Shown: one piece after another, positions 1 through 9,659 of the stretch | Layout of the letters: each line of letters starts with the position of its first letter | Position numbering within the stretch: position 1 is the first letter of the stretch | DNA from: Acutalibacteraceae bacterium | Lineage (GTDB): Bacteria > Bacillota > Clostridia > Oscillospirales > Acutalibacteraceae | Length of the DNA: 64,000 nt | Direction of reading: 5' to 3' | Assembly (NCBI GenBank): GCA_045655905.1 | Contig: JAZOQF010000193.1 | Location: 1,102 to 65,101, forward strand | Made by a program: the position numbers and the translations under genes | The notes under the pieces: model-generated | Told to the model about the DNA's origin: nothing | What the model saw: only the letters and a program-made list of their open reading frames with translations | The model's database searches: none

Positions 1-326
1 CAATCAAAAGACGCATTGTAGGCGCATACTGCGCGAATGTTGTAGCGTTTGAAAATTGCAAGGATTTCTTGGCGAATGGTGTAGAGGTTGGCAACCTTGC
101 GCGTGCCTGCTTTAATCTCCTCGTAGTATTGGGGGATTTTTTCCGCATAGTAGGCACTCTGCATAAGGTCTTGCTCGCCAAAGAAAACTTCCGCATTCAC
201 ATAGGAATGTTGCTCATAGATGTTGCCCTTGCGGTCGCATACGGCAAAGCCGATGTCGTAGAAAAATGGGTCGTCAAGGGTGTTTGCGGTTTCAGTGTCA
301 AGGACAAGGTAGTAGTGTTTTTTCAT
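1..326 (-). CDS. DEDD-type 3'-5' exonuclease domain protein, N-terminal part (runs off left edge)
   Basis: ATG at 326 lies downstream of promoter 356-384. My translation MKKHYYLVLDTETANTLDDPFFYDIGFAV... carries an Exo I type LDTET motif and stays open to position 1. It replaces the antisense track ORF 69-407. Confidence 0.5.
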   Translation of the reverse strand, partial: MKKHYYLVLDTETANTLDDPFFYDIGFAVCDRKGNIYEQHSYVNAEVFFGEQDLMQSAYYAEKIPQYYEEIKAGTRKVANLYTIRQEILAIFKRYNIRAVCAYNASFD

Positions 327-355
327 AAAAGGCGGTTTCCTTTCGTGGTATACCT

Positions 356-384
356 AATTATAACACAGACAACGAAAAATGTCA
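356..384 (-). promoter_or_regulatory. sigma70/sigmaA-type early promoter
   Basis: Minus strand reads TTGACA-17 bp-TGtTATAAT. Drives the CDS ending at 326. Confidence 0.75.
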
Positions 385-392
385 AGCAAAAA

Positions 393-442
393 GTTGCACA
401 AAAATAAAAAAATTTTTTGTGCAAAATGACGGAGCGCCCGGG
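393..442. promoter_or_regulatory. operator-like inverted repeat plus GC palindrome (copy a)
   Basis: TTGCACAA 393-400 and TTGTGCAA 416-423 with a 15 bp gap, then AATGACG and GCGCCCGGGC 433-442. Sits 8 bp upstream of the -35 at 379-384. Confidence 0.5.
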
Positions 443-458
443 CCGCCTTGAGGGCGGC
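442..458 (-). terminator. GC hairpin after CDS 464-736
   Basis: GCCGCC-TTGAG-GGCGGC stem-loop just past the TAA. No clear U-run follows. Confidence 0.4.
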
Positions 459-463
459 TGACT

Positions 464-736
464 TTACAGCTCGCCCCCATAGTGGCTCTCAAGCATTGTC
501 TCAATTGCCACAATTGCGGAACCCCAAGTTTCCTCATCAGGATACCATTCAGCGCCACGCTCACACAGGAAAACAAGCTCTCCTGTGGTCTCATTCATAA
601 CCTCAATATAGGGGAATGCGTGGTCAGCCAATTTCGCCACAAGTCTTGCTTGACAATAAGAAAGATGGGGATAGGTAATTCGCGCAGTGGGCAGAGGGGA
701 ATAGGTGCGAGAGTCAAGAGTAACGGTATAGGTCAT
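464..736 (-). CDS. hypothetical early protein (90 aa)
   Basis: Internal ATG of track ORF 464-886 (MTYTVTLDS...), with an AAGGAG RBS upstream, its own promoter 765-793 and a TAA stop. Confidence 0.65.
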   Translation of the reverse strand: MTYTVTLDSRTYSPLPTARITYPHLSYCQARLVAKLADHAFPYIEVMNETTGELVFLCERGAEWYPDEETWGSAIVAIETMLESHYGGEL

Positions 737-764
737 AATAGTTCTCCTTTTTTTGTTATACCTA

Positions 765-793
765 ATTATAGCACATTTTTGGTCTCTTGTCAA
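765..793 (-). promoter_or_regulatory. sigma70/sigmaA-type early promoter
   Basis: Minus strand TTGACA-17 bp-TGcTATAAT, preceded by an AAAAATTTTTTT tract. Confidence 0.75.
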
Positions 794-816
794 GAGGTTT
801 GGCAAAAAAATTTTTC

Positions 817-843
817 CGCCCGGGCCGCTGCCAAAATTTACCA
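817..843. repeat. 27-nt intergenic repeat, copy 1
   Basis: cgcccgggccgctgccaaaatttacca is identical to 1431-1457. Confidence 0.85.
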
Positions 844-856
844 TTTTTCGCATAAG

Positions 857-878
857 AAAAAAGAGGGACAAGCCCTCT
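857..878 (-). terminator. intrinsic terminator
   Basis: AGAGGG-loop-CCCTCT stem followed on the minus strand by U6. Confidence 0.7.
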
Positions 879-882
879 TTTC

Positions 883-1308
883 TCACTCTGCTTTTGCCTT
901 GTTCCGTCTTGCAGAGTCAGCCGCAATCTTGCGAGCCTTTTTCTCTGCGGCGGCTTTGGCTTTCTGTGCCTTTTCCTCCAAGTCAATCGCATAGGACTCC
1001 AACTCTGCGTTGATGTCGGTATCCAATGCCTTGATTTTGAGGTCAATGGCGATGGTGATAGCACCAGAGCCTCCCTCGTTAGAGATGCCATCTGCGATGG
1101 CGTCGCAAGGGATTTCTACAAGGACACCGTCTGCGGCTCTGCCGACTACCTCAAACTGCTCTGCGAAATCCTCGCAAAGTGCGGCAAGCAACTCTGCTTT
1201 GAGGGCATTTCGTTCAGTTTGATGGATTTGCTCAATGCCAGCGGAATTGACGGTCACACGAAAATCTCTGTCCTTGATGGCGGAAATGAGTGCGGAAAAA
1301 TGAGTCAT
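883..1308 (-). CDS. hypothetical early protein (141 aa) with Lys/Ala/Glu-rich C-terminal tail
   Basis: Track ORF with ATG start, AGAGAGG RBS, promoter 1343-1371 and TGA stop. Confidence 0.7.
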   Translation of the reverse strand: MTHFSALISAIKDRDFRVTVNSAGIEQIHQTERNALKAELLAALCEDFAEQFEVVGRAADGVLVEIPCDAIADGISNEGGSGAITIAIDLKIKALDTDINAELESYAIDLEEKAQKAKAAAEKKARKIAADSARRNKAKAE

Positions 1309-1342
1309 ACCTAATACCTCTCTTTTGTTTTATTGTACTATA

Positions 1343-1371
1343 ATTATAACGCAAATTGCGGTAAAAGTCAA
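1343..1371 (-). promoter_or_regulatory. sigma70/sigmaA-type early promoter
   Basis: Minus strand TTGACT-17 bp-TATAAT. Confidence 0.7.
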
Positions 1372-1379
1372 TAGGCAAA

Positions 1380-1439
1380 TTGCACAAACTTTTACGAAAA
1401 TTGGAATGGAATTTGTGCAAAATGACGAAGCGCCCGGGC
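1380..1439. promoter_or_regulatory. operator-like inverted repeat plus GC palindrome (copy b)
   Basis: TTGCACAA 1380-1387 and TTGTGCAA 1413-1420 with a 25 bp gap, then AATGACG and GCGCCCGGGC 1430-1439. Sits 8 bp from the -35 at 1366-1371. Confidence 0.5.
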
Positions 1440-1457
1440 CGCTGCCAAAATTTACCA
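1431..1457. repeat. 27-nt intergenic repeat, copy 2
   Basis: Identical to 817-843. Confidence 0.85.
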
Positions 1458-1469
1458 ATTCGCGACAAT

Positions 1470-1496
1470 AAAAAAGAGAGGGGCTTTCGCCCCTCT
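1470..1496 (-). terminator. intrinsic terminator
   Basis: AGAGGGGC-GAAA-GCCCCTCT stem followed by a U-run on the minus strand. Confidence 0.8.
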
Positions 1497-1500
1497 TGCA

Positions 1501-1809
1501 TTAGTCAAACAGATTTACCGTAGGGGTAGGCTCTGCGACCTTTGCGGACTTCTTACGCTCTACCTTGACAGTGGGGTCAGCGGTGGAGATGGTAAGAGCA
1601 AGATGTGCGTACACAGTGTTACCTGTGAGATGGTCTTTCGCGACAGGAATGGAAAGACCGCCATTGACATTGGTCACAACCTCTGCGAGATTGGGGTTAG
1701 AGCCAAGTGCGGAAACTACCTGCCCCATAACCTGAGTCGCTACCATAGAGCGAACCTTTGCGGAAACATTGCCCTTCTCGTTAGTGAAAGAAATTACAGA
1801 CATAGCCAT
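1501..1809 (-). CDS. hypothetical early protein (102 aa)
   Basis: Track ORF with ATG start, GGAGAAAGG RBS, promoter 1865-1893 and TAA stop. Confidence 0.7.
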   Translation of the reverse strand: MAMSVISFTNEKGNVSAKVRSMVATQVMGQVVSALGSNPNLAEVVTNVNGGLSIPVAKDHLTGNTVYAHLALTISTADPTVKVERKKSAKVAEPTPTVNLFD

Positions 1810-1864
1810 AGTGGAAAAACCTTTCTCCGTTTTTAAGAGTGACGGCTCTCTTATTTACATACAT

Positions 1865-1893
1865 ATTATACCACAACCTTGGTGGTTTGTCAA
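1865..1893 (-). promoter_or_regulatory. sigma70/sigmaA-type early promoter
   Basis: Minus strand TTGACA-17 bp-TGgTATAAT. Confidence 0.75.
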
Positions 1894-1967
1894 GAGGTTC
1901 TTGAAAGTTTTTTGCAAAAACTTTTTACAGACCAAGCAACGCAATCTCTGTTTTCCACTCTTGACAT
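1890..1967 (-). CDS. possible leaderless micro-ORF (25 aa, MSRVENRDCVAWSVKSFCKKLSRTS)
   Basis: The ATG lies 4 nt after the -10 of promoter 1972-2000, and the TGA stop sits inside the next -35 hexamer. The ATGTCAAG start context is shared with 5749. Confidence 0.2.
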   Translation of the reverse strand: MSRVENRDCVAWSVKSFCKKLSRTS

Positions 1968-1971
1968 AACT

Positions 1972-2000
1972 ATTATACCGCATCTTCCGCCAAAAGTCAA
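1972..2000 (-). promoter_or_regulatory. sigma70/sigmaA-type early promoter
   Basis: Minus strand TTGACT-17 bp-TATAAT. Confidence 0.65.
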
Positions 2001-2012
2001 GACTTTGTTGTT

Positions 2013-2078
2013 CGTCATTTTGCACAAAGTTTTTTGTTTTTTGAGAGGGAATTTGTGCAAAATGACGGGCGCCCGGGC
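2013..2078. promoter_or_regulatory. operator-like inverted repeat with 16-bp arms plus GC palindrome (copy c)
   Basis: cgtcattttgcacaaa 2013-2028 is the reverse complement of tttgtgcaaaatgacg 2052-2067. GCGCCCGGGC lies at 2069-2078. Confidence 0.55.
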
Positions 2079-2080
2079 GA

Positions 2081-2096
2081 GTTAGCATATGCTAAC
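2081..2096 (-). terminator. perfect 16-bp palindrome hairpin overlapping the TAG stop
   Basis: GTTAGCATATGCTAAC. No U-run follows, so function is uncertain. Confidence 0.3.
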
Positions 2097-2346
2097 TCTC
2101 CCACTTTTTTGCGACTTCTTTCGCGTGGAGTTCTTCTTTAAGTAGTTGTTCTACACCAATTTCAACGCCCTCTTTAATGGTGTCAAAATCGTCCACAGAA
2201 AAATAATAAGTGTCTCTATATTTTGTGCGAAATATTTTCCAATTTGGTCTTACTACCTCGTATATACTAACTTCGCACATCGCACAACCAATAGAATAAG
2301 CACGACATTCAAAAGTACGCCCTTCTTTTTCAATAACTACTACCAT
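2092..2346 (-). CDS. hypothetical early protein (84 aa) ending in TAG
   Basis: Internal ATG of track ORF 2092-2406 (MVVVIEKEGRTFE...), with GTGAGGT RBS and promoter 2378-2406. This is the only early-region gene whose stop is TAG. Confidence 0.6.
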   Translation of the reverse strand: MVVVIEKEGRTFECRAYSIGCAMCEVSIYEVVRPNWKIFRTKYRDTYYFSVDDFDTIKEGVEIGVEQLLKEELHAKEVAKKWES

Positions 2347-2377
2347 AATGGATACCTCACTTTTTATTTCTATACAT

Positions 2378-2406
2378 ATTATATCATAAGACATACCAAA
2401 AATCAA
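2378..2406 (-). promoter_or_regulatory. sigma70/sigmaA-type early promoter
   Basis: Minus strand TTGATT-17 bp-TGaTATAAT. Confidence 0.6.
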
Positions 2407-2431
2407 TGGTCAAAGTATACAAAATAAAACC

Positions 2432-2464
2432 GTACAATTGTGCAAAATGACGAAGGCCGGGCGG
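2432..2464. promoter_or_regulatory. operator-like element with abutting half-sites (copy d)
   Basis: GTACAATTGTGCAA followed by AATGACG and a degenerate GGCCGGGCGG. Confidence 0.35.
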
Positions 2465-2602
2465 TTATTCAAAACCGCGCTGCTTCTGCTTGCGTAGCTG
2501 CTTGTCCAGCTTTTCTTGCTTCGTGGGCGTTTTCCGCGTGTACAAGCCGCCCCAAGTGGGGCGCTGCTTGCGTTCCTGTTTTTCAATGTTCTTTTTCAGC
2601 AT
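2465..2602 (-). CDS. small basic protein (45 aa)
   Basis: The ATG follows an AAGGAGAG that overlaps the TAA of 2615-3118. Sequence MLKKNIEKQERKQRPTWGGLYTRKTPTKQEKLDKQLRKQKQRGFE, below the track size cutoff. Confidence 0.5.
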   Translation of the reverse strand: MLKKNIEKQERKQRPTWGGLYTRKTPTKQEKLDKQLRKQKQRGFE

Positions 2603-2614
2603 CTCTTGCTCTCC

Positions 2615-3118
2615 TTATAGCGTCTTGCTTTCCGCTACAAAATATTTGGCGTTGTACTTGCTCAAAATAGCCTTTACTATCTCGCTTTCGTGCTGCGTAG
2701 GGCAATAGCAATTTACAATAGCATACTTGTCTGCCACCAAGATGTTATTTGCAATGCCTAATTGTTGTAGCGTTTTCACCAACTCCGCGCTTTCGTGTAG
2801 CGGAACTGTTGCTTCCACTTTCCAGAGTTTATCCTTGCGCTTCTTGAACTCTACTGCTTTCACGACATACACGCCAATGAGGTTAGCAATGCCAATGATA
2901 ACTGCTTTCCAGAAAAGACCAAGACCGTCAATGGTCATATAGACCACGACAACCGTATAAAGCGCATAGGCTACTGCGTTTGTGGCTGCTGCCGCCCACG
3001 CTCCCCATTTTACGGTGGCGATGCTCTTGATGGTTTGGATAACAACATTGACAATATTAAGGGCTACAAAGACCCAGAGAAAAACCGATAACTCAAAACT
3101 AAACCAATCCATATTCAT
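2615..3118 (-). CDS. integral membrane protein (167 aa), UPF0316/DUF2179-like layout
   Basis: Track ORF with hydrophobic helices in the N-terminal ~100 aa and a soluble C-terminal domain. The family call is from memory of that layout only. Confidence 0.6.
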   Translation of the reverse strand: MNMDWFSFELSVFLWVFVALNIVNVVIQTIKSIATVKWGAWAAAATNAVAYALYTVVVVYMTIDGLGLFWKAVIIGIANLIGVYVVKAVEFKKRKDKLWKVEATVPLHESAELVKTLQQLGIANNILVADKYAIVNCYCPTQHESEIVKAILSKYNAKYFVAESKTL

Positions 3119-3138
3119 TCTCCTTTTGTTTACAATCT

Positions 3139-3167
3139 ATTATAACACATTGTGGTGCTTTTGTCAA
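3139..3167 (-). promoter_or_regulatory. sigma70/sigmaA-type early promoter
   Basis: Minus strand TTGACA-17 bp-TGtTATAAT. Confidence 0.75.
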
Positions 3168-3176
3168 GGTATAATG

Positions 3177-3227
3177 TTGCACAAAGATAATGCGGCGAAA
3201 TTGTGCAAAATGACGGCGCGCCCGGGC
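3177..3227. promoter_or_regulatory. operator-like inverted repeat plus GC palindrome (copy e)
   Basis: TTGCACAA 3177-3184 and TTGTGCAA 3201-3208 with a 16 bp gap, then AATGACG and GCGCCCGGGC 3218-3227. Confidence 0.5.
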
Positions 3228-3229
3228 CA

Positions 3230-3250
3230 CCCTCTCCTTAACGGAGAGGG
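3230..3250 (-). terminator. GC hairpin overlapping stop codon
   Basis: CCCTCTCC-TTAAC-GGAGAGGG. Confidence 0.5.
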
Positions 3251-3462
3251 ATTTCCCAAGCGACCATACCGCAATCTAATGCGTATAGGTGCACACCACG
3301 CTTTTTGCCGTTGCATTCCAAGCCGTTTCGTGCGTTGCTGCGCTTCAAAGACATTGCGATTTTGTAGCAGATTCCGCACACAAGGCTACGGTCATCGGTT
3401 AAGCCGATGCGTTCAAAAACTTCACCAGTTTCGTAGTTGACGATGCGATAAGCGATATCCAT
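3238..3462 (-). CDS. hypothetical early protein (74 aa)
   Basis: Internal ATG of track ORF 3238-3522 (MDIAYRIVNYETGE...), with GAGGAG RBS, promoter 3494-3522 and TAA stop. Confidence 0.6.
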   Translation of the reverse strand: MDIAYRIVNYETGEVFERIGLTDDRSLVCGICYKIAMSLKRSNARNGLECNGKKRGVHLYALDCGMVAWEIPLR

Positions 3463-3493
3463 AATAAGTTCTCCTCTTGTTTGGTTATACCTA

Positions 3494-3522
3494 ATTATAC
3501 CACGGATCGGGACAAAAGTCAA
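3494..3522 (-). promoter_or_regulatory. sigma70/sigmaA-type early promoter
   Basis: Minus strand TTGACT-17 bp-TGgTATAAT. Confidence 0.7.
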
Positions 3523-3560
3523 GGGTTTTGCGAAAAAAATTTTTTGGCCCGGGCTAGGCC

Positions 3561-3579
3561 GCGAGGGTCAAGCCCTCGC
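3561..3579 (-). terminator. GC hairpin overlapping stop codon
   Basis: GCGAGGG-TCAAG-CCCTCGC. Confidence 0.5.
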
Positions 3580-3999
3580 TTCCAGCCATTCTACCATTTT
3601 TCTACTCTCGTCTTTCGCTCTGATTTTGGTCTTGCTACCATTTTTCTCGCTCTCGCGGGTCAAGTAGCCAAATTCGGTAACGAAAGTTCTAAACTCGCTC
3701 GCGTTCATCTCGTAGACCTTGAACTCGCGACTTACATAGGCGAAAGTCTTGCTCGCGACTCTTGCGAAATAATCGTCAAGCATCTCGCTCATTGTAGAGC
3801 CTTTCAGTTGCCCACCAGAGCAGAGGGAGAACTTGGCACTCTTGACGCTCATATCAAGTTCGGGGATATCAGAGCCTTCATACCATTTGAGATTGCCGTG
3901 CTTGCGGAGGCAACCAGTCTTTTCGTATGTAAGGGAGGCTTCACAGTTTTGACCGTGATTGGCATAAGCGGAGATATTAGAAATAAAGTAAGTAGTCAT
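3568..3999 (-). CDS. early paralog family member 1 (143 aa)
   Basis: Track ORF. Shares an N-terminal NHGxN..E, a central S(A/V)K(S)A...C.G and a C-terminal ESEKNG..K.R.KDES..M.E.LE.RA with 5881-6282 and 6493-6894. Confidence 0.7.
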   Translation of the reverse strand: MTTYFISNISAYANHGQNCEASLTYEKTGCLRKHGNLKWYEGSDIPELDMSVKSAKFSLCSGGQLKGSTMSEMLDDYFARVASKTFAYVSREFKVYEMNASEFRTFVTEFGYLTRESEKNGSKTKIRAKDESRKMVEWLEARA

Positions 4000-5562: not shown

Positions 5563-5568
5563 ACTCAT

Positions 5569-5749: not shown

Positions 5750-5753
5750 TATT

Positions 5754-5782
5754 ATTATAACATATTGTGGCTTGCTTGTCAA
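5754..5782 (-). promoter_or_regulatory. sigma70/sigmaA-type early promoter
   Basis: Minus strand TTGACA-17 bp-TGtTATAAT. Confidence 0.7.
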
Positions 5783-5791
5783 TATGGCATT

Positions 5792-5851
5792 TTGCACAAA
5801 CTTTGGGGCTGCTGGCGCGCAGCTTTTGTGCATATTGACGGGCGCCCGGGC
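5792..5851. promoter_or_regulatory. operator-like inverted repeat plus GC palindrome (copy f)
   Basis: TTGCACAA 5792-5799 and TTGTGCAt 5826-5833 with a 26 bp gap, then ATTGACG and GCGCCCGGGC 5842-5851. Confidence 0.45.
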
Positions 5852-5866
5852 GCTAGCGGCCGGGGC

Positions 5867-5895
5867 AAAAAAGAGAGGGCTTATACCGCCCTCTC
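5867..5895 (-). terminator. intrinsic terminator
   Basis: GAGAGGGC-loop-GCCCTCTC overlapping the TAA, followed by U6 on the minus strand. Confidence 0.75.
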
Positions 5896-6282
5896 CTCAA
5901 GATATTTCAGCATTGCTTGTGACTCATCTTTTAATCTCATCTTAACCGCACCGCCGTTTTTCTCGCTCTCGGTTGTAACCGTTGCAAATGCGGTACAGAA
6001 TGCGATGTATTCGGCTTTAGTCATCTTGTATGCGATGCCAGCCTTTGTGCCGTAGATGTATTCGGTAGCACAGTCATCTTCAAGATACTTGACGATGTCA
6101 GTGCCCTTGCACACAGTTGCTCTCGCGCTCTTGATTTGGTAAATCAGGCAATCAGTGCCTTTGTTGTGCGCGATGTTGTCGGCTTTTTCAAGCTTGCCTG
6201 TGAGCAAGTAGCGGATGGATTGCTCTACATTGTGCCCGTGGTTGTGGTAGTTGTTGAGATAAGTGAAGTTGAAAGTAGTCAT
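5881..6282 (-). CDS. early paralog family member 2 (133 aa)
   Basis: Track ORF. About half its residues match 6493-6894 (LTGK.EKADNIAH.KGTD, KSARATVCKGTDI, ESEKNGG). Confidence 0.75.
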   Translation of the reverse strand: MTTFNFTYLNNYHNHGHNVEQSIRYLLTGKLEKADNIAHNKGTDCLIYQIKSARATVCKGTDIVKYLEDDCATEYIYGTKAGIAYKMTKAEYIAFCTAFATVTTESEKNGGAVKMRLKDESQAMLKYLEERAV

Positions 6283-6314
6283 TGATTGTGTCCTCTCTTG
6301 TTTGGTTGTACCTT

Positions 6315-6343
6315 ATTATACCATATAAACCCGGGCTTGTCAA
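6315..6343 (-). promoter_or_regulatory. sigma70/sigmaA-type early promoter
   Basis: Minus strand TTGACA-17 bp-TGgTATAAT, with CCCGGG inside the spacer. Confidence 0.75.
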
Positions 6344-6376
6344 GGGGTTTGCAAAAAATTTTTAAAAAATTTTTGT

Positions 6377-6490
6377 AGCTGCTGCTGGTGCGCGTGTGCG
6401 CGTGTATACACGGGTGCTGCTGGTGGTGCTGCTGGTGCTGCGTGTGCGCATATATATACGCGGGCGGGCGGGCGCGTGCGCGTGGACGGG
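6377..6490. repeat. simple-sequence mosaic I
   Basis: Successive blocks of (GCT/GGT)n, alternating GC/GT runs (gcgcgtgtgcgcgtgtatacac), tatatata and GGGCGGGCGGGC...GGGG. Confidence 0.9.
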
Positions 6491-6509
6491 GCTCACCTTG
6501 CGGTGAGCC
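6490..6509 (-). terminator. GC hairpin overlapping stop codon
   Basis: GGCTCACC-TTGC-GGTGAGCC. Confidence 0.5.
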
Positions 6510-6894
6510 ATTCCAACATTCTTTGTGTTTCGTGTCCCAGCCTGATTTTTGGGGTTCCCCCGTTCTTTTGGCTCTCACGGGTTACTGTGCCGAAGACTTG
6601 CACAAATTGCTCATATTCAGTACGGCTCATTATGTAGGCGGTGCCGTCTTTGGTGATGTAGGCGTATTTGCTTGCCTTGTCGGCATCAAGGTAGGCTTTG
6701 ATGTCGGTGCCCTTGCAGACGGTTGCTCTTGCCGATTTTACGGAATAGATGCCGATGTCGGTACCCTTGTCATGTGCGATGTTGTCGGCTTTTTCAACCT
6801 TACCCGTTAGGGTGTAGCGGAACCATTGTTCAAGGTGTTGTCCGTTGTTGCGGTAGGTGCGGTTAAAATTGGGGGTTAGAGTGAAGTGTTTCAT
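6493..6894 (-). CDS. early paralog family member 3 (133 aa)
   Basis: Internal ATG of track ORF 6493-6954 (MKHFTLTPNF...), with AGAGAGGA RBS, promoter 6926-6954 and TGA stop. Confidence 0.75.
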   Translation of the reverse strand: MKHFTLTPNFNRTYRNNGQHLEQWFRYTLTGKVEKADNIAHDKGTDIGIYSVKSARATVCKGTDIKAYLDADKASKYAYITKDGTAYIMSRTEYEQFVQVFGTVTRESQKNGGTPKIRLGHETQRMLEWLTAR

Positions 6895-6925
6895 TTTTGT
6901 ATCCTCTCTTGTTTGGTTGTACCTT

Positions 6926-6954
6926 ATTATACCATATGCACGGGCGGTTGTCAA
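6926..6954 (-). promoter_or_regulatory. sigma70/sigmaA-type early promoter (leftward arm, first cassette)
   Basis: Minus strand TTGACA-17 bp-TGgTATAAT. Confidence 0.75.
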
Positions 6955-7039
6955 TAGGTTTTTGAAAAAAAGTTAAAGAAATATTGCACAAATTTGAGAG
7001 GGAAATTTTGTGCAACTTTTTTTCAAAAACCTATTGACA
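6949..7039. promoter_or_regulatory. palindromic divergent control region
   Basis: The 26-bp arm tgtcaataggtttttgaaaaaaagtt (6949-6974) is the exact reverse complement of 7014-7039. Each arm contains a -35 hexamer. TTGCACAA 6984-6991 and TTGTGCAA 7008-7015 lie between them (copy g). Confidence 0.8.
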
Positions 7040-7062
7040 CGGGCGGAAAAGTGTGCTATAAT
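7034..7062 (+). promoter_or_regulatory. sigma70/sigmaA-type early promoter
   Basis: TTGACAcgggcggaaaagtgtgcTATAAT with a 17 bp spacer. Confidence 0.75.
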
Positions 7063-7095
7063 TAGTACAGAAATAAAGAAAGAGAGGGAAAAACA

Positions 7096-7197
7096 ATGTT
7101 AGGCGGTATTCTTTTTTTCGCAACCGTTGCGCTGTGTGCTTTTCTTCTTTGGGGCGCGTTTGGTGTACGCTCTATCAGAGAAGCGATTATGAGATGA
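7096..7197 (+). CDS. small hydrophobic peptide (33 aa)
   Basis: MLGGILFFATVALCAFLLWGAFGVRSIREAIMR, with GAGAGGGA RBS, TGA stop and terminator 7200-7222. Confidence 0.5.
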   Translation: MLGGILFFATVALCAFLLWGAFGVRSIREAIMR

Positions 7198-7199
7198 GA

Positions 7200-7222
7200 G
7201 GGAGCCGAAGGCTCCCTTTTTT
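7200..7222 (+). terminator. intrinsic terminator
   Basis: GGGAGCC-GAA-GGCTCCC followed by T6. Confidence 0.85.
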
Positions 7223-7258
7223 CTTAAAAAATTTTTTAAAAAATTTTTCAAAAAGTGC

Positions 7259-7287
7259 TTGACACGGGCGGAAAAGTGTGCTATAAT
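7259..7287 (+). promoter_or_regulatory. sigma70/sigmaA-type early promoter
   Basis: Same 29-mer TTGACAcgggcggaaaagtgtgcTATAAT as at 7034 and 8330. Confidence 0.75.
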
Positions 7288-7322
7288 ATAGACAGAAAGC
7301 AAGAGAAAGAGAGGAAAAGAAA

Positions 7323-7460
7323 ATGCTTTGGACTATCAAAAACACAATAACAGGACAGGTAGCCGCGGCTTTTGGTGTTACCAAAAAAGAGGCTTGCGAT
7401 GCTCTCAATTGGAATTATCGCGTTTGCGAAGTTCTCGCCTCTACTTGCCGTTATTGGTAA
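7323..7460 (+). CDS. small early protein (45 aa)
   Basis: MLWTIKNTITGQVAAAFGVTKKEACDALNWNYRVCEVLASTCRYW, with AGAGAGGAAAAG RBS, TAA stop and terminator 7469-7491. Confidence 0.5.
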   Translation: MLWTIKNTITGQVAAAFGVTKKEACDALNWNYRVCEVLASTCRYW

Positions 7461-7468
7461 GAGGGAGA

Positions 7469-7491
7469 GGGAGCCGAAAGGCTCCCTTTTT
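7469..7491 (+). terminator. intrinsic terminator
   Basis: GGGAGCC-GAAA-GGCTCCC followed by T5. Confidence 0.85.
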
Positions 7492-7520
7492 GTATTGCTT
7501 TAATGTTAAAATTTTACAAT

Positions 7521-8034
7521 TTTTAATGCTACTGCTTGCTGCGTGTTGCCGCTGCTGCCTGCTGCTGCTCGTGCTGCCGTCGCCGTTGCTGATGGCGTGT
7601 GCGTGCGTGCGTGCGTGCGTGCGTGGGTGTGTGTGGGTGTGCTTATCCCTATCCTATCCCTATCTTATCCCTATCCTATCCCTATCCTATCCCTATCCTA
7701 TCCCTATCCTATCTTTATCCTATCCCTATCCTATCTTTATCCTATCTTTATCCTATCCCTATCCTATCTTTATCCTATCTTTATCCTATCCCTATCCTAT
7801 CTTTATCCTATCCCTATCCTATCTTTATCCTTGTCTTGTCTTGTCTTTGTCTTGTCTTTGTCTTGTCTTTGTCTTGTCTTTGTCTTGTCTTTTGTGTGTG
7901 TGTGTGTGTGTATGTGCAGACGGAGAGCGACGGACAGAACAACGGAGCAACGGAGAGAGAGGGAGAGAGGGAGAGAGGGAGAGAGAGGGAGAGAGGGAGA
8001 AAGGCTTTTTCTAAAAAAAAAAAAAAAAAAAAAA
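7521..8034. repeat. simple-sequence mosaic II (about 510 bp)
   Basis: Ordered blocks: CTG/GCC-rich 7528-7595; (GTGC)n and GT-rich 7605-7642; a G-free TATCC/TATCTT-type repeat 7643-7830; (CTTGT/CTTTGT)n 7829-7892; (GT)n 7893-7916; ACGG-rich 7921-7953; polypurine (GGGAGAGA)n 7953-8003; A22 8013-8034. Confidence 0.95.
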
Positions 8035-8057
8035 TAAAAAAAATTTTTCAAAATCCC

Positions 8058-8086
8058 TTGACACGGGCGAAAAACTATGTTATAAT
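8058..8086 (+). promoter_or_regulatory. sigma70/sigmaA-type early promoter
   Basis: TTGACAcgggcgaaaaactatgtTATAAT with a 17 bp spacer. Confidence 0.75.
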
Positions 8087-8139
8087 TAGTACAGAAAGAG
8101 GGAAGGAAAACCGACTAAACCAAGAAAGGAAAGAGGAAA

Positions 8140-8256
8140 ATGTTTGATAGAAATGCTTTGGAAAACTTTGTGTGTGGTATCGTTACAAAAGGCTGGATTG
8201 TAGTCGTTGCAATGTTTGCAGTAACTATGGCTTTGTTGATGACAGTAGGAGCATAA
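8140..8256 (+). CDS. small hydrophobic peptide (38 aa)
   Basis: MFDRNALENFVCGIVTKGWIVVVAMFAVTMALLMTVGA, with AAGAGGAAA RBS and TAA stop. Confidence 0.5.
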   Translation: MFDRNALENFVCGIVTKGWIVVVAMFAVTMALLMTVGA

Positions 8257-8263
8257 AAGGAGA

Positions 8264-8321
<58 letters not shown>

Positions 8322-8329
8322 AAAACCCC

Positions 8330-8358
8330 TTGACACGGGCGGAAAAGTGTGCTATAAT
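8330..8358 (+). promoter_or_regulatory. sigma70/sigmaA-type early promoter
   Basis: TTGACAcgggcggaaaagtgtgcTATAAT. Confidence 0.75.
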
Positions 8359-8415
8359 ATAGACAGTAAAAGGGAAGGAAAACCGACTAAACCACAAGAA
8401 AGAAAGAGGTAAAAA

Positions 8416-8598
8416 ATGAAACTTTATATTGTTATGTTCAAGGATGCTTGCGAATGGGAAGCACAGGAATGGTTGGGCGGAGTATTCTCCACCGAGGAAA
8501 AAGCTCAGGCGTATATGGAAGCATACATCAACGATGATGATGACGACGATGTAGAAGGATACATCACCACCCGCACCTTGGATGACGATGAGTTATAA
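8416..8598 (+). CDS. acidic small protein (60 aa)
   Basis: Track ORF with AAGAGGTAAAAA RBS and a D/E-rich C-terminal half (DDDDDDVEGY...DDDEL). Confidence 0.7.
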   Translation: MKLYIVMFKDACEWEAQEWLGGVFSTEEKAQAYMEAYINDDDDDDVEGYITTRTLDDDEL

Positions 8599-8605
8599 AA
8601 AGAGA

Positions 8606-8629
8606 GGGAGCCGAAAGGCTCCCTTTTTT
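8606..8629 (+). terminator. intrinsic terminator
   Basis: GGGAGCC-GAAA-GGCTCCC followed by T6. Confidence 0.85.
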
Positions 8630-8631
8630 CT

Positions 8632-8653
8632 AAAAAAAAAAAAAAAAAAAAAA
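8632..8653. repeat. poly(A)22 tract upstream of promoter
   Basis: A run of 22 A. Confidence 0.95.
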
Positions 8654-8675
8654 TAAAAATTTTTTTAAAAACCCC

Positions 8676-8704
8676 TTGACAAACCCCTCAAACTATGCTA
8701 TAAT
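8676..8704 (+). promoter_or_regulatory. sigma70/sigmaA-type early promoter
   Basis: TTGACA-17 bp-TGcTATAAT. Confidence 0.75.
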
Positions 8705-8735
8705 ATAGACAGAAAGAACGAAAGAGGTAAACACA

Positions 8736-8834
8736 ATGAAAACACTTAAAACTTTTGCAAGAGAGAATAACGCGACTGAGGTAAACATCTACCATCGCAG
8801 AAAGACCGCAACCTTAAAGGGTCTTTGCAAGTAA
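8736..8834 (+). CDS. basic 32-aa peptide, paralog 1
   Basis: MKTLKTFARENNATEVNIYHRRKTATLKGLCK, with AAGAGGTAAA RBS. About 70 percent identical to 9363-9461. Confidence 0.55.
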   Translation: MKTLKTFARENNATEVNIYHRRKTATLKGLCK

Positions 8835-8840
8835 CCGAGA

Positions 8841-8865
8841 GGAAGCCGAAAGGCTTCCTTTTTTT
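8841..8865 (+). terminator. intrinsic terminator
   Basis: GGAAGCC-GAAA-GGCTTCC followed by T7. Confidence 0.85.
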
Positions 8866-8900
8866 ACTAAAAAATTTTTTAAAAATTTTTCAAAAATCCC

Positions 8901-8929
8901 TTGACAAATGCCCGGGAATTTGTTATAAT
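8901..8929 (+). promoter_or_regulatory. sigma70/sigmaA-type early promoter
   Basis: TTGACA-17 bp-TGtTATAAT, with CCCGGG in the spacer. Confidence 0.75.
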
Positions 8930-8986
8930 TAATACAGAAAGAGGGAAGAAAAACCGACTAAACCACAATACAGAAAGAGGTATAAA

Positions 8987-9235
8987 ATGACTAAACTTGA
9001 ATTGATGGCAATGCTTGAAGGTATCGCAGATGATGCAGAAATCACTTTTGTAGAAAGCGTGAGAGACCGCGATGGTTATCCCCAAGATGAAAGAGTAAAG
9101 GTCTACAAGGTACTTGGTGGCGAGGTTGTAAGTGTGAGAGGCGAATGCGGTTGCTACACTCTTGAAAATCTCACAGATGAAATTGAGTATATCCGCTGGA
9201 ATGAATATGGCGGATATTACCGCAGAAAGAAATAA
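8987..9235 (+). CDS. hypothetical early protein (82 aa)
   Basis: Track ORF with AAGAGGTATAAA RBS and TAA stop. Confidence 0.7.
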   Translation: MTKLELMAMLEGIADDAEITFVESVRDRDGYPQDERVKVYKVLGGEVVSVRGECGCYTLENLTDEIEYIRWNEYGGYYRRKK

Positions 9236-9242
9236 AAAGAGA

Positions 9243-9266
9243 GGGAGTCGCAAGACTCCCTTTTTT
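9243..9266 (+). terminator. intrinsic terminator
   Basis: GGGAGTC-GCAA-GACTCCC followed by T6. Confidence 0.85.
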
Positions 9267-9302
9267 ACTAAAAAAATTTTTAAAAAATTTTTTATAAACC
9301 CC

Positions 9303-9331
9303 TTGACAAACTCGCCAAACTATGATATAAT
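9303..9331 (+). promoter_or_regulatory. sigma70/sigmaA-type early promoter
   Basis: TTGACA-17 bp-TGaTATAAT. Confidence 0.75.
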
Positions 9332-9362
9332 TAGTACAGAAAGAAAGAAAAGAGGATACAAA

Positions 9363-9461
9363 ATGAAAACCCTGAAGACCTTCGCAAACACCGCAAACAT
9401 CACCGAGGTAAACACTTACCACCGCAGAAAGCCCGCAACCCTGAAAGCAATGTGTAAGTAA
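9363..9461 (+). CDS. basic 32-aa peptide, paralog 2
   Basis: MKTLKTFANTANITEVNTYHRRKPATLKAMCK, the tail of track ORF 9162-9461, with AAGAGGATACAAA RBS. Confidence 0.55.
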   Translation: MKTLKTFANTANITEVNTYHRRKPATLKAMCK

Positions 9462-9467
9462 GGGGAT

Positions 9468-9516
9468 GCCCCCCTCTCTCCCGATAAAATGGGAGAGACC
9501 CCGGGGGGGTGTTTTT
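9468..9516 (+). terminator. long GC hairpin terminator closing the rightward early arm
   Basis: TCTCTCCC-GATAAAAT-GGGAGAGA inner stem, flanked by C6/G7 runs and followed by T5. Confidence 0.65.
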
Positions 9517-9659
9517 GTGGAAAAAGTTGACCGCCAAAAATGCGTAACGAACACTGGGCAAAAGATTATCTACGCAATTTTTCAGCTTCCCACATTCCAA
9601 AACCCAAACAAAATTAAACCCCACACTCCAATCCAGCCTTTTCCATCCAATCCTCAACT

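Follow-up and report, generated by a model that had tools for sequence, protein, structure and literature searches.

A divergent array of self-contained expression cassettes in an uncultivated, putatively SPbeta-related phage

What kind of region carries 24 near-consensus promoters in some 9.5 kb? The question arises for one end of the 64-kb stretch of DNA analyzed here (the window), which an initial annotation had compared with the host-takeover module of phage SPO1. The region carries at least 24 self-contained expression cassettes in a divergent array. We consider it fairly probable that it represents a hyperplastic accessory-gene region, expressed early, of a large uncultivated siphovirus-like phage that is distantly akin to SPbeta and probably has a gut or rumen Clostridia host. 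The array occupies positions 1–9520, as had been proposed, but extends past both limits: the window start falls within its last gene, an exonuclease, and an additional divergent promoter pair was found at 10121–10202.

Within positions 1–9520, 24 sigma-A-type promoters were found, 17 leftward (minus strand) and 7 rightward (plus strand), so that the cassette coordinates exactly reproduced the count in the initial annotation. A 17-bp spacer and a TATAAT -10 were present in all 24; the -35 hexamer was TTGACA in 20, TTGACT in three, and TTGATT in one, and 22 had the extended -10 TG. A consensus scan recovered 20 sites with 12/12 hexamer positions, all having the 17-bp spacer and the TG, and together with the cassette coordinates it confirmed the near-perfect promoters described earlier. 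The search for TTGACA-N14-TGN-TATAAT with at most one mismatch across the 64 kb gave 25 matches vs. approximately 0.06 expected by chance, 21 of them within 357–9331, and the promoter density was 2.5 per kb in the array vs. 0.07 per kb in the rest of the window. The hexamers were invariant, whereas the spacer sequences differed, which indicates that the hexamers were kept by selection and not by recent duplication alone. The A/T tract reported upstream of the promoters was real: runs of at least 6 A or T occurred in 19 of the 24 cassettes. The tracts, which include AAAAAATTTTT units with an 11-bp period, are helically phased and UP-like; the region also holds three poly(A) runs of 28–35 nt. 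Host-type promoters of the same form also occur in Clostridia bins, ahead of tRNA and rplJ genes. From the promoter type, and solely from it, we infer early expression of the array.

The cassettes follow a regular order. A G/C-rich stem-loop that sits at the preceding stop codon or overlaps it is followed by the palindrome GCCCGGGC (leftward arm only), an A/T tract or a CGTCATTTTGCACAA inverted repeat, a near-ideal extended -10 promoter, and the transcript; from promoter to gene, the order is CCC-TTGACA-N14-TGn-TATAAT, a conserved transcript start, a polypurine Shine-Dalgarno sequence, and one small ORF or structured RNA. The products are 22 ORFs of 32–167 aa with AGAGG-type ribosome-binding sites and two non-coding transcripts. 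One small ORF or RNA per promoter was mostly observed, with the exceptions of the tandem second promoter at 2000 and the two-gene cassette at 3167. The GC hairpin said to close each unit was canonical, with a U-tract, in all seven rightward cassettes but in only about 5–6 leftward ones; five further leftward cassettes had a GC hairpin at the stop codon and then a GCCCGGGC box in place of the U-tract. Because a U-tract terminator is absent from several of the leftward cassettes, transcription probably reads through, and “autonomous” does not hold strictly. Repeated cassette DNA comprised units of 104 nt (seven copies), 60 nt (nine), 90 nt (six), and 65 nt (seven), and the GC content of coding sequences was 46% in the array vs. 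39% in the core genes.

Two elements that appear to be undescribed, the GCCCGGGC palindrome and the CGTCATTTTGCACAA inverted repeat, accompany the promoters. The ten 8-bp GCCCGGGC boxes (436, 818, 1432, 2071, 3220, 3547, 4146, 5044, 5334, and 5844; span 436–5851) lie after the hairpin of the upstream cassette and before the A/T tract or inverted repeat of the next promoter. These ten copies in 64 kb compare with 0.2 expected, and none was found outside 436–5851. The box is conserved in the related loci L001 and L002, and across the clade it is about 100-fold over-represented (862 copies in 1.65 Mb of retrieved sequence vs. 8.5 expected). Its variable distance to the promoter and its absence from the rightward arm rule it out as an obligatory promoter element. 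The CGTCATTTTGCACAA / TTGTGCAAAATGACG inverted-repeat boxes (394–431, 1380–1427, 2013–2067, 3177–3215, 5785–5840, and a half-site only at 2438–2452; repeat families D11, D14, and D16) replace the A/T tract in their cassettes and occurred in 67 copies in 39 related loci vs. 2 in the control. The initial annotation mentioned neither these boxes nor the cassette shuffling described below.

On the leftward arm, cassettes 1 (6470–6954; promoter 6954–6926) and 2 (5860–6343; promoter 6343–6315; terminator overlapping the stop codon) encode paralogs of a 133-aa family (ORFs 6493–6894 and 5881–6282, 59% identical), of which cassette 9 (3555–4061; promoter 4061–4033) carries a divergent third member (3568–3999, 143 aa). 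Cassettes 3 and 4 specify non-coding RNAs. RNA1, of approximately 120–150 nt (5598–5782; promoter 5782–5754), had a folding z of -3.03 and a full-length homolog in L191/L224 (E 5e-25), where the body was about 90% identical with three compensatory pair changes and the promoter spacer had diverged. RNA2, of approximately 220 nt (5345–5597; promoter 5597–5569; terminator hairpin 5384–5353), had an MFE of -81.2 kcal/mol (z -3.07) and matched no Rfam family; its 5′ ~100 nt were conserved in L156 and L119. Cassette 5 (5060–5299; promoter 5299–5271; orphan ORF 5076–5237, 53 aa) ends in a GAGGGAACATCCCTC hairpin and then a GCCCGGGC box, without a U-tract. Cassette 6 (4810–5018; promoter 5018–4990; ORF 4810–4965, 51 aa, pI 10.5) has no terminator; the ORF ends in a stop codon located within the -35 hexamer of the next promoter. 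The Cys/His-rich ORF of cassette 7 (4608–4813; promoter 4813–4785; ORF 4627–4752, 41 aa) has its stop codon within the loop of the terminator (4638–4616). Cassette 8 (4198–4577; promoter 4577–4549; strong terminator 4229–4206) encodes a 93-aa phrog_4264 protein (4234–4515), the L002 homolog of which has DUF8033.

Farther out, cassette 10 (3228–3522; promoter 3522–3494, TTGACT with TG) holds an orphan ORF (3238–3462, 74 aa) with a stop-codon hairpin and then a GCCCGGGC box. Cassette 11 (2455–3167; promoter 3167–3139) comprises a three-TM, UPF0316/YebE-like ORF (2615–3118, 167 aa) and a highly basic one (2465–2602, 45 aa). In cassette 12 (2080–2406; promoter 2406–2378, TTGATT; ORF 2092–2346, 84 aa), the hairpin overlaps the stop codon. 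Cassette 14 (1470–1893; promoter 1893–1865; ORF 1501–1809, 102 aa; terminator 1496–1477) is preceded by the leftward tandem promoter (1972–2000, TTGACT-17-TATAAT without TG). Cassette 15 (850–1371; promoter 1371–1343, TTGACT without TG; terminator hairpin and T-run) encodes 141 aa with a Lys/Ala-rich tail (883–1308; homologs in three loci), and cassette 16 (440–793; promoter 793–765) an orphan of 90 aa (464–736) with a GC hairpin at its stop codon. The last, cassette 17 (1–385; promoter 385–357), holds a DEDD-type exonuclease gene (phrog_20187, E 9e-25) that continues past the window start, so that only its 5′ part, from the ATG at 326, is present; its homologs in 72 related loci are likewise the last array gene.

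The arms diverge from a 79-bp near-palindromic control region between back-to-back promoters (6955–7033), centered on a TTGCACAAA...TTTGTGCAA inverted repeat (6984–7015). The rightward cassettes all carry short ORFs: cassette 1 (7034–7225; promoter 7034–7062; ORF 7096–7197, 33 aa, hydrophobic; GAGGGAGCC...GGCTCCC terminator), cassette 2 (7259–7495; promoter 7259–7287; ORF 7323–7460, 45 aa; terminator 7464–7491), cassette 3 with a long polypurine leader (8058–8290; promoter 8058–8086; ORF 8140–8256, 38 aa, hydrophobic; terminator 8263–8282), and cassette 4 (8330–8632; promoter 8330–8358; ORF 8416–8598, 60 aa, acidic, DUF7336; terminator 8605–8624). Cassettes 5 (8676–8870; promoter 8676–8704; ORF 8736–8834, 32 aa, basic; terminator present) and 7 (9303–9515; promoter 9303–9331; ORF 9363–9461, 32 aa; strong terminator at ~9467–9510) encode paralogs with 75% identity, and between them lies cassette 6 (8901–9268; promoter 8901–8929; ORF 8987–9235, 82 aa, acidic; terminator 9242–9261).

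The view that no product is recognizable is a little overstated, given the DEDD-type exonuclease, the UPF0316/YebE-type membrane protein, and the DUF7336 and DUF8033/phrog_4264 proteins. For none of the array proteins has a takeover or anti-defense role been demonstrated or deduced from homology, and host-takeover, host-shutoff, or anti-defense functions are only suggested. The sole hint, a sub-threshold match to the anti-defense protein Tad8, was not upheld on re-examination. The ORFs do not represent pieces of larger degraded genes.

The likeness to SPO1 is confined to layout and promoter type: both have small genes with strong ribosome-binding sites in a block of approximately 10–13 kb. The genes of the SPO1 module have been described as small and early, with promoters and ribosome-binding sites that are strong (PMC6873191), and when the 13-kb terminal region of SPO1 was scored in the same way, approximately 13 TTGAC[A/T]-17-TGn-nATAAT promoters were recovered, with 10–11 of 12 matches. 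If the array were a true host-takeover module of this type, it would be a terminal-redundancy early host-shutoff block sharing an ancestor with that of Herelleviridae. However, the array proteins had no homology with gp36–gp60, its replication and structural counterparts in the phage resemble those of SPbeta rather than those of Herelleviridae, the arms diverge whereas those of SPO1 converge, SPO1 lacks the GCCCGGGC box, and no repeat marking a terminal redundancy was found within the window. Membership in an SPO1-type module is thus largely refuted, and common descent is very improbable.

The designed look of the DNA (perfect promoters, a SmaI site in GCCCGGGC, A28–A35 runs, microsatellite-like blocks) could in principle suggest an assembly chimera or synthetic, vector-like DNA. 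However, hundreds of contigs, assembled independently from the rumen and gut metagenomes of many animals, show this cassette grammar with other genes and a diverged sequence; a milder form occurs in cultured Enterococcus phages, and ordinary phage genes flank the array. An artifact, to which we assigned a negligible probability, is refuted by these independent occurrences.

Hundreds of related contigs have the repeated regulatory DNA in conserved form, while their gene content turns over. The box-plus-promoter pattern was found in 93 stretches of genome bins and in more than 120 of IMG/VR, and the 1.65 Mb retrieved contained 1,206 array-type promoters. L001 has 16–17 promoters and nine GCCCGGGC boxes, and L002 has 23 and 12; only about 6 of the 24 array ORFs have a counterpart in L001/L002, and 11 of 24 have any homolog in the 219 loci. 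Loci L112 and L184 (~94% identical) differ by cassette-sized indels or replacements that end within promoter repeats; at one 1.7-kb indel, the alignments on either side overlap for 27 nt within the promoter. Homology breakpoints (n = 285) were over-represented 3.8-fold in the 40-nt stretch upstream of the -35 (p 4.5e-13) and 5.8-fold at up to 10 nt from the GCCCGGGC box center (p 7e-10), and they were depleted within genes. These breakpoints are ends of BLAST segments from closely related but non-independent pairs, the enrichment is moderate, and it would also arise from random recombinants filtered for intact cassettes. A close relative of the present phage was not found (the best array protein match was 75% identical); therefore, cassette exchange is documented for clade members and not for the present array. 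T4-like phages provide the nearest mechanistic precedent in their PeSL promoter/stem-loop cassettes (PMC2839356; PMC4122927), in which, as in this clade, regulatory DNA is repeated and conserved and genes turn over. Repeated control DNA, GCCCGGGC included, appears to let related phages swap mostly unknown genes.

Judged by its genes, the phage is an uncultivated, distant relative of SPbeta. The YorL-like (SPbeta-like) polymerase and the YonB/D/G neighbors in relatives support the Firmicutes (Bacillota) host proposed earlier, as do the array-bearing bins, mostly Clostridia, and the cultured Enterococcus phages that carry the hallmark exonuclease; the host is probably a gut or rumen member of Clostridia. 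This kinship also raises the alternative of a moron-type, lysogenic-conversion array of a temperate SPbeta-like phage, in which the prophage would express autonomous units that serve superinfection exclusion, host fitness, or toxin/antitoxin functions. A moron is reportedly defined by its own promoter, ORF, terminator, and atypical composition, and the units fit this definition. The two palindromic boxes adjoining array promoters would then be master-repressor operators, as in SPbeta, where an element repeated in about ten intergenic promoter regions is the MrpR operator, SPBRE (PMC10516654). However, the conserved 133-aa array gene had no copies in approximately 186,000 species-representative bacterial genomes, array-bearing contigs of genome bins resemble binned phage genomes, and no integrase or repressor was seen within the 64-kb window of this incomplete genome. 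Moreover, 24 tandem maximal-strength promoters would be costly in a lysogen, silent or active, and 14 of the 24 cassettes have no box. A moron array is thus unlikely, albeit the least implausible of the alternatives.

Under the preferred reading of an early-expressed accessory region, unmodified host sigma-A RNA polymerase would read the array promoters at DNA entry without a phage factor; the strongest promoters of the host are of this type. Some 20 small proteins and two RNAs may then be produced in an immediate burst, with the hairpins presumably insulating cassettes from one another. The repeated 60–100-nt regulatory DNA, which serves as portable homology for recombination in relatives, may do so in the present phage; cassettes would thereby be gained, lost, and swapped among related phages like PeSL elements, which would account for the abundance of orphan genes, the differences in gene content among relatives, and the higher array GC. 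The two palindromic boxes are most likely protein-binding sites, putatively of a regulator switching a subset of cassettes or of a recombination or insulation factor.

Low-complexity DNA also separates some cassettes. A GC-rich tract of (TGC)n, GTGCGCGT, and GCGG repeats (6380–6480) lies between leftward cassettes 1 and 2, and a tract of approximately 520 bp (7527–8043; repeat family D1) between rightward cassettes 2 and 3 consists of (TGC)16, (GTGC)9, and (TATCCCTATCC)17 with a period of 11, followed by (CTTGTCTTTGT)6 with a period of 11, (TG)12, (GAGAGAGG)6, and then A31.

The 24 promoter–gene cassettes of window 1–9520 are best described as a probably early-expressed hyperplastic region that is both PeSL-like (after the promoter-early stem-loop elements of T4-like phages) and SPO1-like, belonging to Clostridia phages that are related to SPbeta and form a new and abundant clade. 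The cassette table contained 17 promoters reading leftward, their −35 hexamers starting between 6954 and 385, and seven reading rightward (7034 to 9303), a count identical to that of the initial annotation. Its description of the promoters was likewise borne out by promoter consensus scoring: the 17-bp spacer and TATAAT were each found in 24/24 cases and the TG in 22/24, and the −35 hexamer was TTGACA in 20 promoters, TTGACT in three, and TTGATT in one. A consensus scan of positions 1–10500 returned 20 sites that matched TTGACA-17-TATAAT at 12/12 hexamer positions, all with TG at −15/−14. Both this grammar and its statistical excess were observed directly. When up to one mismatch was allowed, TTGACA-N14-TGN-TATAAT occurred 25 times in 64 kb versus 0.06 expected from shuffles, with 21 of the matches located within 357–9331. 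The 17-nt spacers varied among cassettes, whereas the hexamers were invariant, which points to selection on the hexamers and argues against recent copying alone. The annotated upstream A/T tracts were also recovered: 19 of the 24 cassettes had an A or T run of at least 6 nt, with phased AAAAAATTTTT units of 11-bp period (A6T5), and three poly(A) runs of 28–35 nt (A28–A35) were present in the rightward arm. In seven cassettes, the A/T tract was replaced by the TTGCACAA inverted repeat. The predicted 5′ UTRs were 14–51 nt long. Judging from knowledge of sigma-A promoters and UP elements, host RNA polymerase would transcribe such an array immediately upon DNA entry, factor-independently and very strongly.

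The intergenic regions all followed a strict modular order. Read along transcription, leftward cassettes consisted of a stop codon with a GAGGG...CCCTC-type hairpin, the 8-bp palindromic GCCCGGGC box, either an A6-7T6-7 tract or CGTCATTTTGCACAA-N(0-31)-TTTGTGCAA, (A)AACCCC, TTGACA-N14-TGn-TATAAT, TAGGTATAAC or AAGGTACAAC, and a ribosome-binding site with ATG. In the rightward arm, the terminator GAGAGGGAGCCGAAAGGCTCCCTTTTTT was followed by poly(A) or (A6T6)n, CCCC-TTGACA...TATAAT, the TAGTACAGAAAG leader, and a ribosome-binding site. Three rightward leaders carried an extra polypurine element, the Shine-Dalgarno-like AAGAGGGAAGGAAAACCGACTAAACCA (8094–8125, 8370–8400, and 8940–8970, plus strand), some 35 nt before the actual ribosome-binding site; we take this second element to be reminiscent of 5′ mRNA stabilisers (STAB-SD, SP82 leader). 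The repeat families returned by the repeat finder (7 × 104 nt, 9 × 60 nt, 6 × 90 nt, and 7 × 65 nt) corresponded to cassette units.

Each promoter was followed by a purine-rich Shine-Dalgarno sequence (AGAGG, GGAG) and then by one ORF of 32–167 aa. The annotated rule of one ORF or RNA per promoter held for most cassettes, including the ORF-less ones at promoters 5782 and 5597, but not for promoter 3167, which serves two genes, or promoter 2000, which is itself a tandem second promoter. The proposed closing hairpin, often over the stop codon, could similarly be retained for most cassettes, since about 17 of the 20 assessable ones had a GAGGG...CCCTC-type hairpin at the stop codon or close to it. 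However, a U-tract behind the hairpin was found in about 13 cassettes, namely in 7/7 rightward but only about 5–6 leftward ones; five leftward hairpins were followed by a GC box instead, and ORF 4810–4965 terminated within the −35 hexamer of the next cassette. As intrinsic terminators, these hairpins would insulate the units from one another partially.

The window starts inside the last leftward gene; thus, the array slightly exceeds 1–9520. Just to the right of it, a divergent promoter pair of the TTGACT type was located at 10121–10202 (both strands). Its rightward promoter preceded a Cys-rich 65-aa ORF (10231–10428, plus strand) and a long plus-strand operon, and its leftward promoter preceded a 63-aa ORF (9711–9902, minus strand) with its own terminator at 9688–9667. 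A lone element of the same grammar was also noted in the structural-gene block (20640–20708, plus strand), comprising a terminator hairpin, CCCCAAAAAC, and a perfect TTGACA-17-TGnTATAAT; this was the sole perfect promoter of the window outside the array. Inspection of 34 intergenic gaps elsewhere in the window revealed no obvious distinct middle or late promoter motif.

The palindromic repeats of the array were also strongly overrepresented. The GCCCGGGC box was present in 10 copies in the window versus 0.2 expected, all within 436–5851, and TTGTGCAA in 18 copies versus 4.6 expected, 13 of them within 394–7015; the CGTCATTTTGCACAA half-site occurred eight times. The 79 bp between the back-to-back promoters (6955–7033) formed a near-palindrome centred on a CGTCATTTTGCACAA/TTGTGCAA-type inverted repeat. 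Across the 1.65 Mb of fetched related loci, there were 862 copies of GCCCGGGC versus 8.5 expected from composition, which made it by far the most enriched 8-bp palindrome. The share of these copies lying no more than 150 nt upstream of a consensus promoter was 53%, or 38% when the selected pair of each locus was left out, and such zones made up 10.6% of the bases. The CGTCATTTTGCACAA half-site was found in 67 copies in 39 loci versus two in a reversed-sequence control. In the literature searched, the GCCCGGGC string was encountered only in primers and cloning sites; both palindromic elements, this box and the inverted repeat of CGTCATTTTGCACAA, are apparently new to description.

The context of GCCCGGGC was YGCCCGGGCR with non-conserved flanks, and its distance to the −35 was clustered but not fixed. 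With such variable spacing, and with no copy among the rightward cassettes, the box is unlikely to be a core promoter element. The box was also considered as part of an RNA hairpin or terminator, which was rejected, since a perfect palindrome of 8 bp is too short for a stable hairpin and its flanks were neither conserved nor complementary. A role as a host promoter element was rejected as well, because the single box-plus-promoter matches on chromosomal contigs were chance strings; those in L011 and L072, two of the loci fetched for comparison, apparently lay inside ribosomal-protein coding sequence, just upstream of an rplJ-type leader. GCCCGGGC and the CGTCATTTTGCACAA repeat are most likely sites for proteins at the DNA level. 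As the upstream element comes in two “flavours,” different subsets of cassettes may be under different regulation, and the two conserved palindromic boxes point towards a putative regulatory or recombination factor.

In SPbeta, the operator of the master repressor MrpR is a short element found repeatedly, in about 10 intergenic promoter regions (PMC10516654). The array resembles this SPBRE/MrpR system in the placement of its short repeated elements, with GCCCGGGC occurring 10 times and the CGTCATTTTGCACAA half-site 8 times in intergenic promoter regions. By this analogy, the boxes could have an operator role; however, they are situated at cassette junctions, at variable distance from the −35. 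A non-exhaustive scan of the window proteins found no MrpR-type repressor of tyrosine-recombinase fold.

The same grammar was observed directly across the clade. A 94-kb IMG/VR contig (L001), whose 133-aa protein was 64% identical to that of the window, carried 16–17 promoters and nine GCCCGGGC boxes in a 10.4-kb one-strand array, together with additional palindromic boxes of its own; a third lineage (L002) had 23 promoters and 12 boxes. A grammar probe, GCCCGGGC-N18-45-TTGACA-N14-TGN-TATAAT, was run on genome bins and IMG/VR and retrieved 93 stretches from the former and at least 120 from the latter, on contigs of up to 239 kb. The 1.65 Mb of fetched sequence contained 1,206 extended −10 consensus promoters, i.e., 0.73 per kb. 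The genes between these repeats turn over, which was likewise seen directly. Only about six of the 24 window ORFs had homologs in L001 or L002, and 11/24 had a homolog anywhere in the 219 loci; the other 13 had none in about 1.65–1.7 Mb of related arrays, and all seven rightward mini-genes were orphans among these loci. The window and L001 shared the order of several conserved “anchors,” namely the 133-aa family, with three copies per genome beside the divergence point, a short-RNA cassette bearing the CGTCATTTTGCACAA inverted repeat, the 167-aa membrane protein, and a terminal exonuclease.

Closely related phage pairs among the fetched loci allowed cassette exchange to be followed. Loci L112 and L184 were about 92–95% identical and collinear save for cassette-sized differences. 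One replacement had its right edge within a promoter, and an indel of 1,708 nt had a promoter copy on either side, the alignments to its left and right sharing 27 nt of the promoter; other small indels were flanked by 75-nt promoter-plus-box repeats. For all pairs of at least 88% identity, 285 non-terminal alignment ends were pooled, with the pairs being non-independent and BLAST ends serving as crossover proxies. These ends were enriched 3.8-fold in the 40 nt directly upstream of the −35 (p 4.5e-13) and 5.8-fold within 10 nt of the box centre (p 7e-10), depleted 70–400 nt downstream, inside genes, and not enriched in zones further upstream of the −35. That homology breakpoints cluster at the repeats is thus a direct observation. 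A similar breakpoint picture would result from random recombination followed by selection of phages whose cassettes were intact; however, deletion between direct promoter repeats, as in the 1,708-nt indel, is a classic signature of homologous exchange. Exchange at the elements was seen in clade members; for the window's own phage, the searches yielded no close relative.

Homologous exchange between the repeats may also be compared with a more specific scheme, in which GCCCGGGC, possibly together with CGTCATTTTGCACAA, is the site of a dedicated phage protein that catalyses or targets cassette exchange, with the 133-aa protein and the terminal exonuclease as candidates. We consider this scheme rather unlikely. 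If true, the array would act, much as an integron does, as a self-expressing “gene-swap platform” for genes of counter-defence and takeover, not as a passive substrate of homologous recombination, and such a platform would be common to the Clostridia phages of gut and rumen that make up a very large clade. An integron platform consists of an integrase and attI with promoterless cassettes ending in attC, whereas every cassette of the array has its own promoter, and no integrase was found among the window proteins scanned, the genome being incomplete.

Among known systems, the array comes closest in mechanism to the PeSL of T4-like phages, which is defined by a repeated early promoter of sigma-70 consensus, an AT-rich tract upstream of the −35, and an adjacent G/C-rich stem-loop terminator, clustered around ORFans in hyperplastic regions with recombination-mediated indels and replacements (PMC2839356, PMC4122927). 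All five of these sequence-level features were found in the array or in members of its clade, with the stem-loops being predicted terminators. The array thus shares with the PeSL (Arbiol, Comeau, Krisch 2010; Comeau et al. 2014) the early promoter, AT tract, and G/C stem-loop, the flanking small ORFans, and the variable region, and in its clade members, the indels and replacements between close relatives likewise end in the elements. Moreover, GGGC/GCCC motifs lie at T4 deletion endpoints, for which a binding protein was speculated by the PeSL authors (PMC2839356), an intriguing parallel to GCCCGGGC. In contrast to the PeSL, the array promoters have the extended −10 TG, the GCCCGGGC box and the CGTCATTTTGCACAA inverted repeat are additional, and the cassettes form one continuous, two-armed divergent array of about 10 kb, whereas T4-like phages have several scattered hyperplastic regions. 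The lineage is also unrelated, being SPbeta-like with a Gram-positive host; since the replication and structural genes are SPbeta-like, the array is a convergent analogue of the PeSL rather than a member. The literature searched contained no report of PeSL-like cassettes outside the T4-like phages.

The resemblance to the SPO1 host-takeover module proposed in the initial annotation held for layout and promoter type but not for membership. Both regions are blocks of 10–13 kb with small genes of mostly unknown function, TTGAC[A/T]-17-TGn-nATAAT promoters, and strong ribosome-binding sites. Under identical scoring, the terminal 13 kb of SPO1 had about 12–13 promoters of the form TTGAC[A/T]-17-TGn-[A/C/T]ATAAT, matching at 10–11 of 12 positions and none perfectly, which serve about 26–30 genes in operons on converging arms. 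In contrast, the array has about one promoter per gene, 20 of them perfect, on diverging arms, and the GCCCGGGC box is absent from SPO1. No homology to the SPO1 module genes 37–60 was detected (24 array proteins against SPO1 1–14500, tblastn best E 0.07, all matches short). The array thus operates like the SPO1 module in its promoter logic without being a member of it. By analogy with SPO1, T4, and T5, the array products may act in host takeover or counter-defence.

Two further systems are similar in part. In lambdoid and other temperate phages, morons are inserted singly between core genes and are expressed from the prophage. They share with the array autonomous promoter–ORF–terminator units of atypical composition; however, the array has 24 units in tandem, and no sign of lysogeny was seen (no prophage copy of the 133-aa gene and no integrase in the window of this incomplete genome). 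Enterococcus phages H1, EF1, EF5, and VRE9_1-4 (about 140 kb; unclassified Caudoviricetes near Spbetavirus) have about 23 small, spaced hypothetical genes on one strand and the same terminal DEDD exonuclease, and H1 has 10 sigma-A consensus promoters, six of them perfect. They differ in lacking the GCCCGGGC box and the 133-aa family and in their lower promoter density, and may be regarded as a cultured but distant analogue.

These comparisons extend PeSL-type evolution, so far reported for T4-like phages infecting Gram-negative bacteria, to phages of gut and rumen Clostridia, an unrelated clade that is very abundant. They suggest that portable promoter/terminator cassettes are a convergent, general means for large phages to keep a fast-turnover arsenal. 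The DNA signature of GCCCGGGC, 18–45 nt, and a perfect extended −10 promoter retrieves such arrays from metagenomes and, with them, thousands of small, mostly orphan genes, predicted to be highly expressed, and a few structured RNAs. Screens for host takeover and anti-defence in little-known hosts could best begin with these genes and RNAs, and the cassettes are ready-made, insulated expression parts of predicted maximal strength for Bacillota.

Nearly all array products were uncharacterised, without Pfam or PHROG function, which largely agrees with the earlier statement that none is recognisable, apart from four: a DEDD-type exonuclease (phrog_20187), a three-TM protein of 167 aa (2615–3118) called UPF0316/YebE-type by some sources (4,268 clusters), an acidic DUF7336 protein (30.6 bits versus a cut-off of 25), and a phrog_4264/DUF8033 protein. 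The others included two hydrophobic mini-proteins and several very basic, acidic, or Cys-rich ones. No product was fragmentary, as would be expected of remnants of larger degraded genes. For the 167-aa protein, a sub-threshold match to Tad8 (anti-Thoeris) was not backed by homologs, and its family is UPF0316/YebE-like.

The 133-aa family, with paralogs at 5881–6282, 6493–6894, and 3568–3999 (all minus strand), comprised 281 metagenomic clusters without a Pfam domain and was labelled “predicted DNA-binding protein” by one source. Its AlphaFold model was very confident (pLDDT 94.4, pTM 0.87) and had no PDB neighbour in Foldseek (best E 0.12), so that a PD-(D/E)xK nuclease (D44/Q49/K51), which had been considered, was dropped. 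A profile search of PDB sequences and tblastn against deposited phages returned nothing, an exact-sequence search for contigs gave no record, and no prophage copy was detected in about 186,000 bacterial genomes. A protein identical to the product of ORF 5881–6282 is recorded from an NCBI contig of 66 kb. The only viral match was an uncharacterised protein of the uncultured “Siphoviridae sp. ct2vX3.” The predicted structure possibly represents a new fold.

The two non-coding leftward cassettes, RNA1 (promoter 5782) and RNA2 (promoter 5597), folded better than shuffled controls (z ~ −3) and matched no Rfam family. RNA1 had a full-length homolog on a second contig (E 5e-25), in which the body was about 90% conserved and the adjacent promoter spacer had diverged, with compensatory double changes at three helix positions between the two sequences. 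An 18-mer scan of viral and metagenome contigs gave only the same second contig and unrelated matches, so that covariation is limited to two sequences. The 5′ domain of RNA2 was kept in two further loci. These very few sequences hint at structured RNAs that are under selection. In its 3′ domain, RNA2 contains an ACCCTTA...TAAGGGT hairpin (5424–5453) with a weak Rfam match to CRISPR-DR11 (E 0.28, plus strand). The match is probably due to chance, and an RNA mimic of a CRISPR repeat is not the probable reading. In the array of L001, a 94-nt element (14936–15029) matched only the tRNA-like domain of tmRNA (RF00023, 35 bits, gathering score 47) and was not called by ARAGORN; it may be a phage mini tRNA-like RNA.

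The minus-strand remainder of the window is a large-phage replication module with a Pol III-alpha-like polymerase, type II topoisomerase, DnaB, primase, and RecJ. The polymerase (35459–39373, minus strand) was about 40% identical to SPbeta YorL, and the topoisomerase was encoded by three consecutive ORFs of 619, 337, and 383 aa (47045–51166, minus strand) adjoining the polymerase, RecJ, DnaB, and primase. The plus strand was mostly dark matter with one tape-measure-like domain. In relatives, genes adjoining the array belonged to Pfam YonB, YonD_N, and YonG_N. The terminal exonuclease of the array was also present in the cultured Enterococcus phages (H1, EF1, EF5, VRE9_1-4) and in the gut phage phAss-1. 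EF1, Enterocloster phage PMBT10, and human-gut “ct” genomes have been placed near Spbetavirus with Clostridia/Eubacteriales as predicted hosts, and promoters were not mentioned (PMC10607447). Megablast of the region gave no DNA match to deposited phages, no tRNAs were present in the window, and no long or terminal repeat was found within the window of this incomplete 66-kb contig.

About 16 of the ~23 genome-bin contigs with real arrays were binned as Clostridia (Eubacterium, Ruminococcus, Acutalibacteraceae, Lachnospiraceae, and Clostridium), a share that is indicative only, since binning of phage contigs is unreliable. The samples were from rumen and gut of many animals and humans. Host promoters of the exact array form were found before tRNA and rplJ genes in Clostridia bins. 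The extended −10 promoters, strong Shine-Dalgarno sequences, lineage, and bin evidence together make a Bacillota host well supported and a Bacteroidota host not, in accordance with the Firmicutes-like host first proposed.

The array also differed from the core genome in composition. The GC content of its coding sequences (window 1–7000) was 46% versus 39% in 17 core genes, a difference of about 7 percentage points, which would fit cassette genes that are foreign in origin or differ in codon usage. In addition, striking low-complexity DNA was observed within the array (7527–8043, 6380–6480, 8291–8325, and 8632–8659). Its blocks were arranged in the order (TGC)16, (GTGC)9, (TATCCCTATCC)17, (CTTGTCTTTGT)6, (TG)12, (GAGAGAGG)6, and A31, with an 11-bp period in TATCCCTATCC and CTTGTCTTTGT; an A35 run, an A28 run, and a GC-rich microsatellite patch stood apart from these main blocks. 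The tract could be curved DNA, a protein-wrapping array, an origin, or slippage debris. Unrelated short tandem arrays were located at the array borders of the relatives L002 (9785–9852) and L001 (8023–8227 and 19162–19360).
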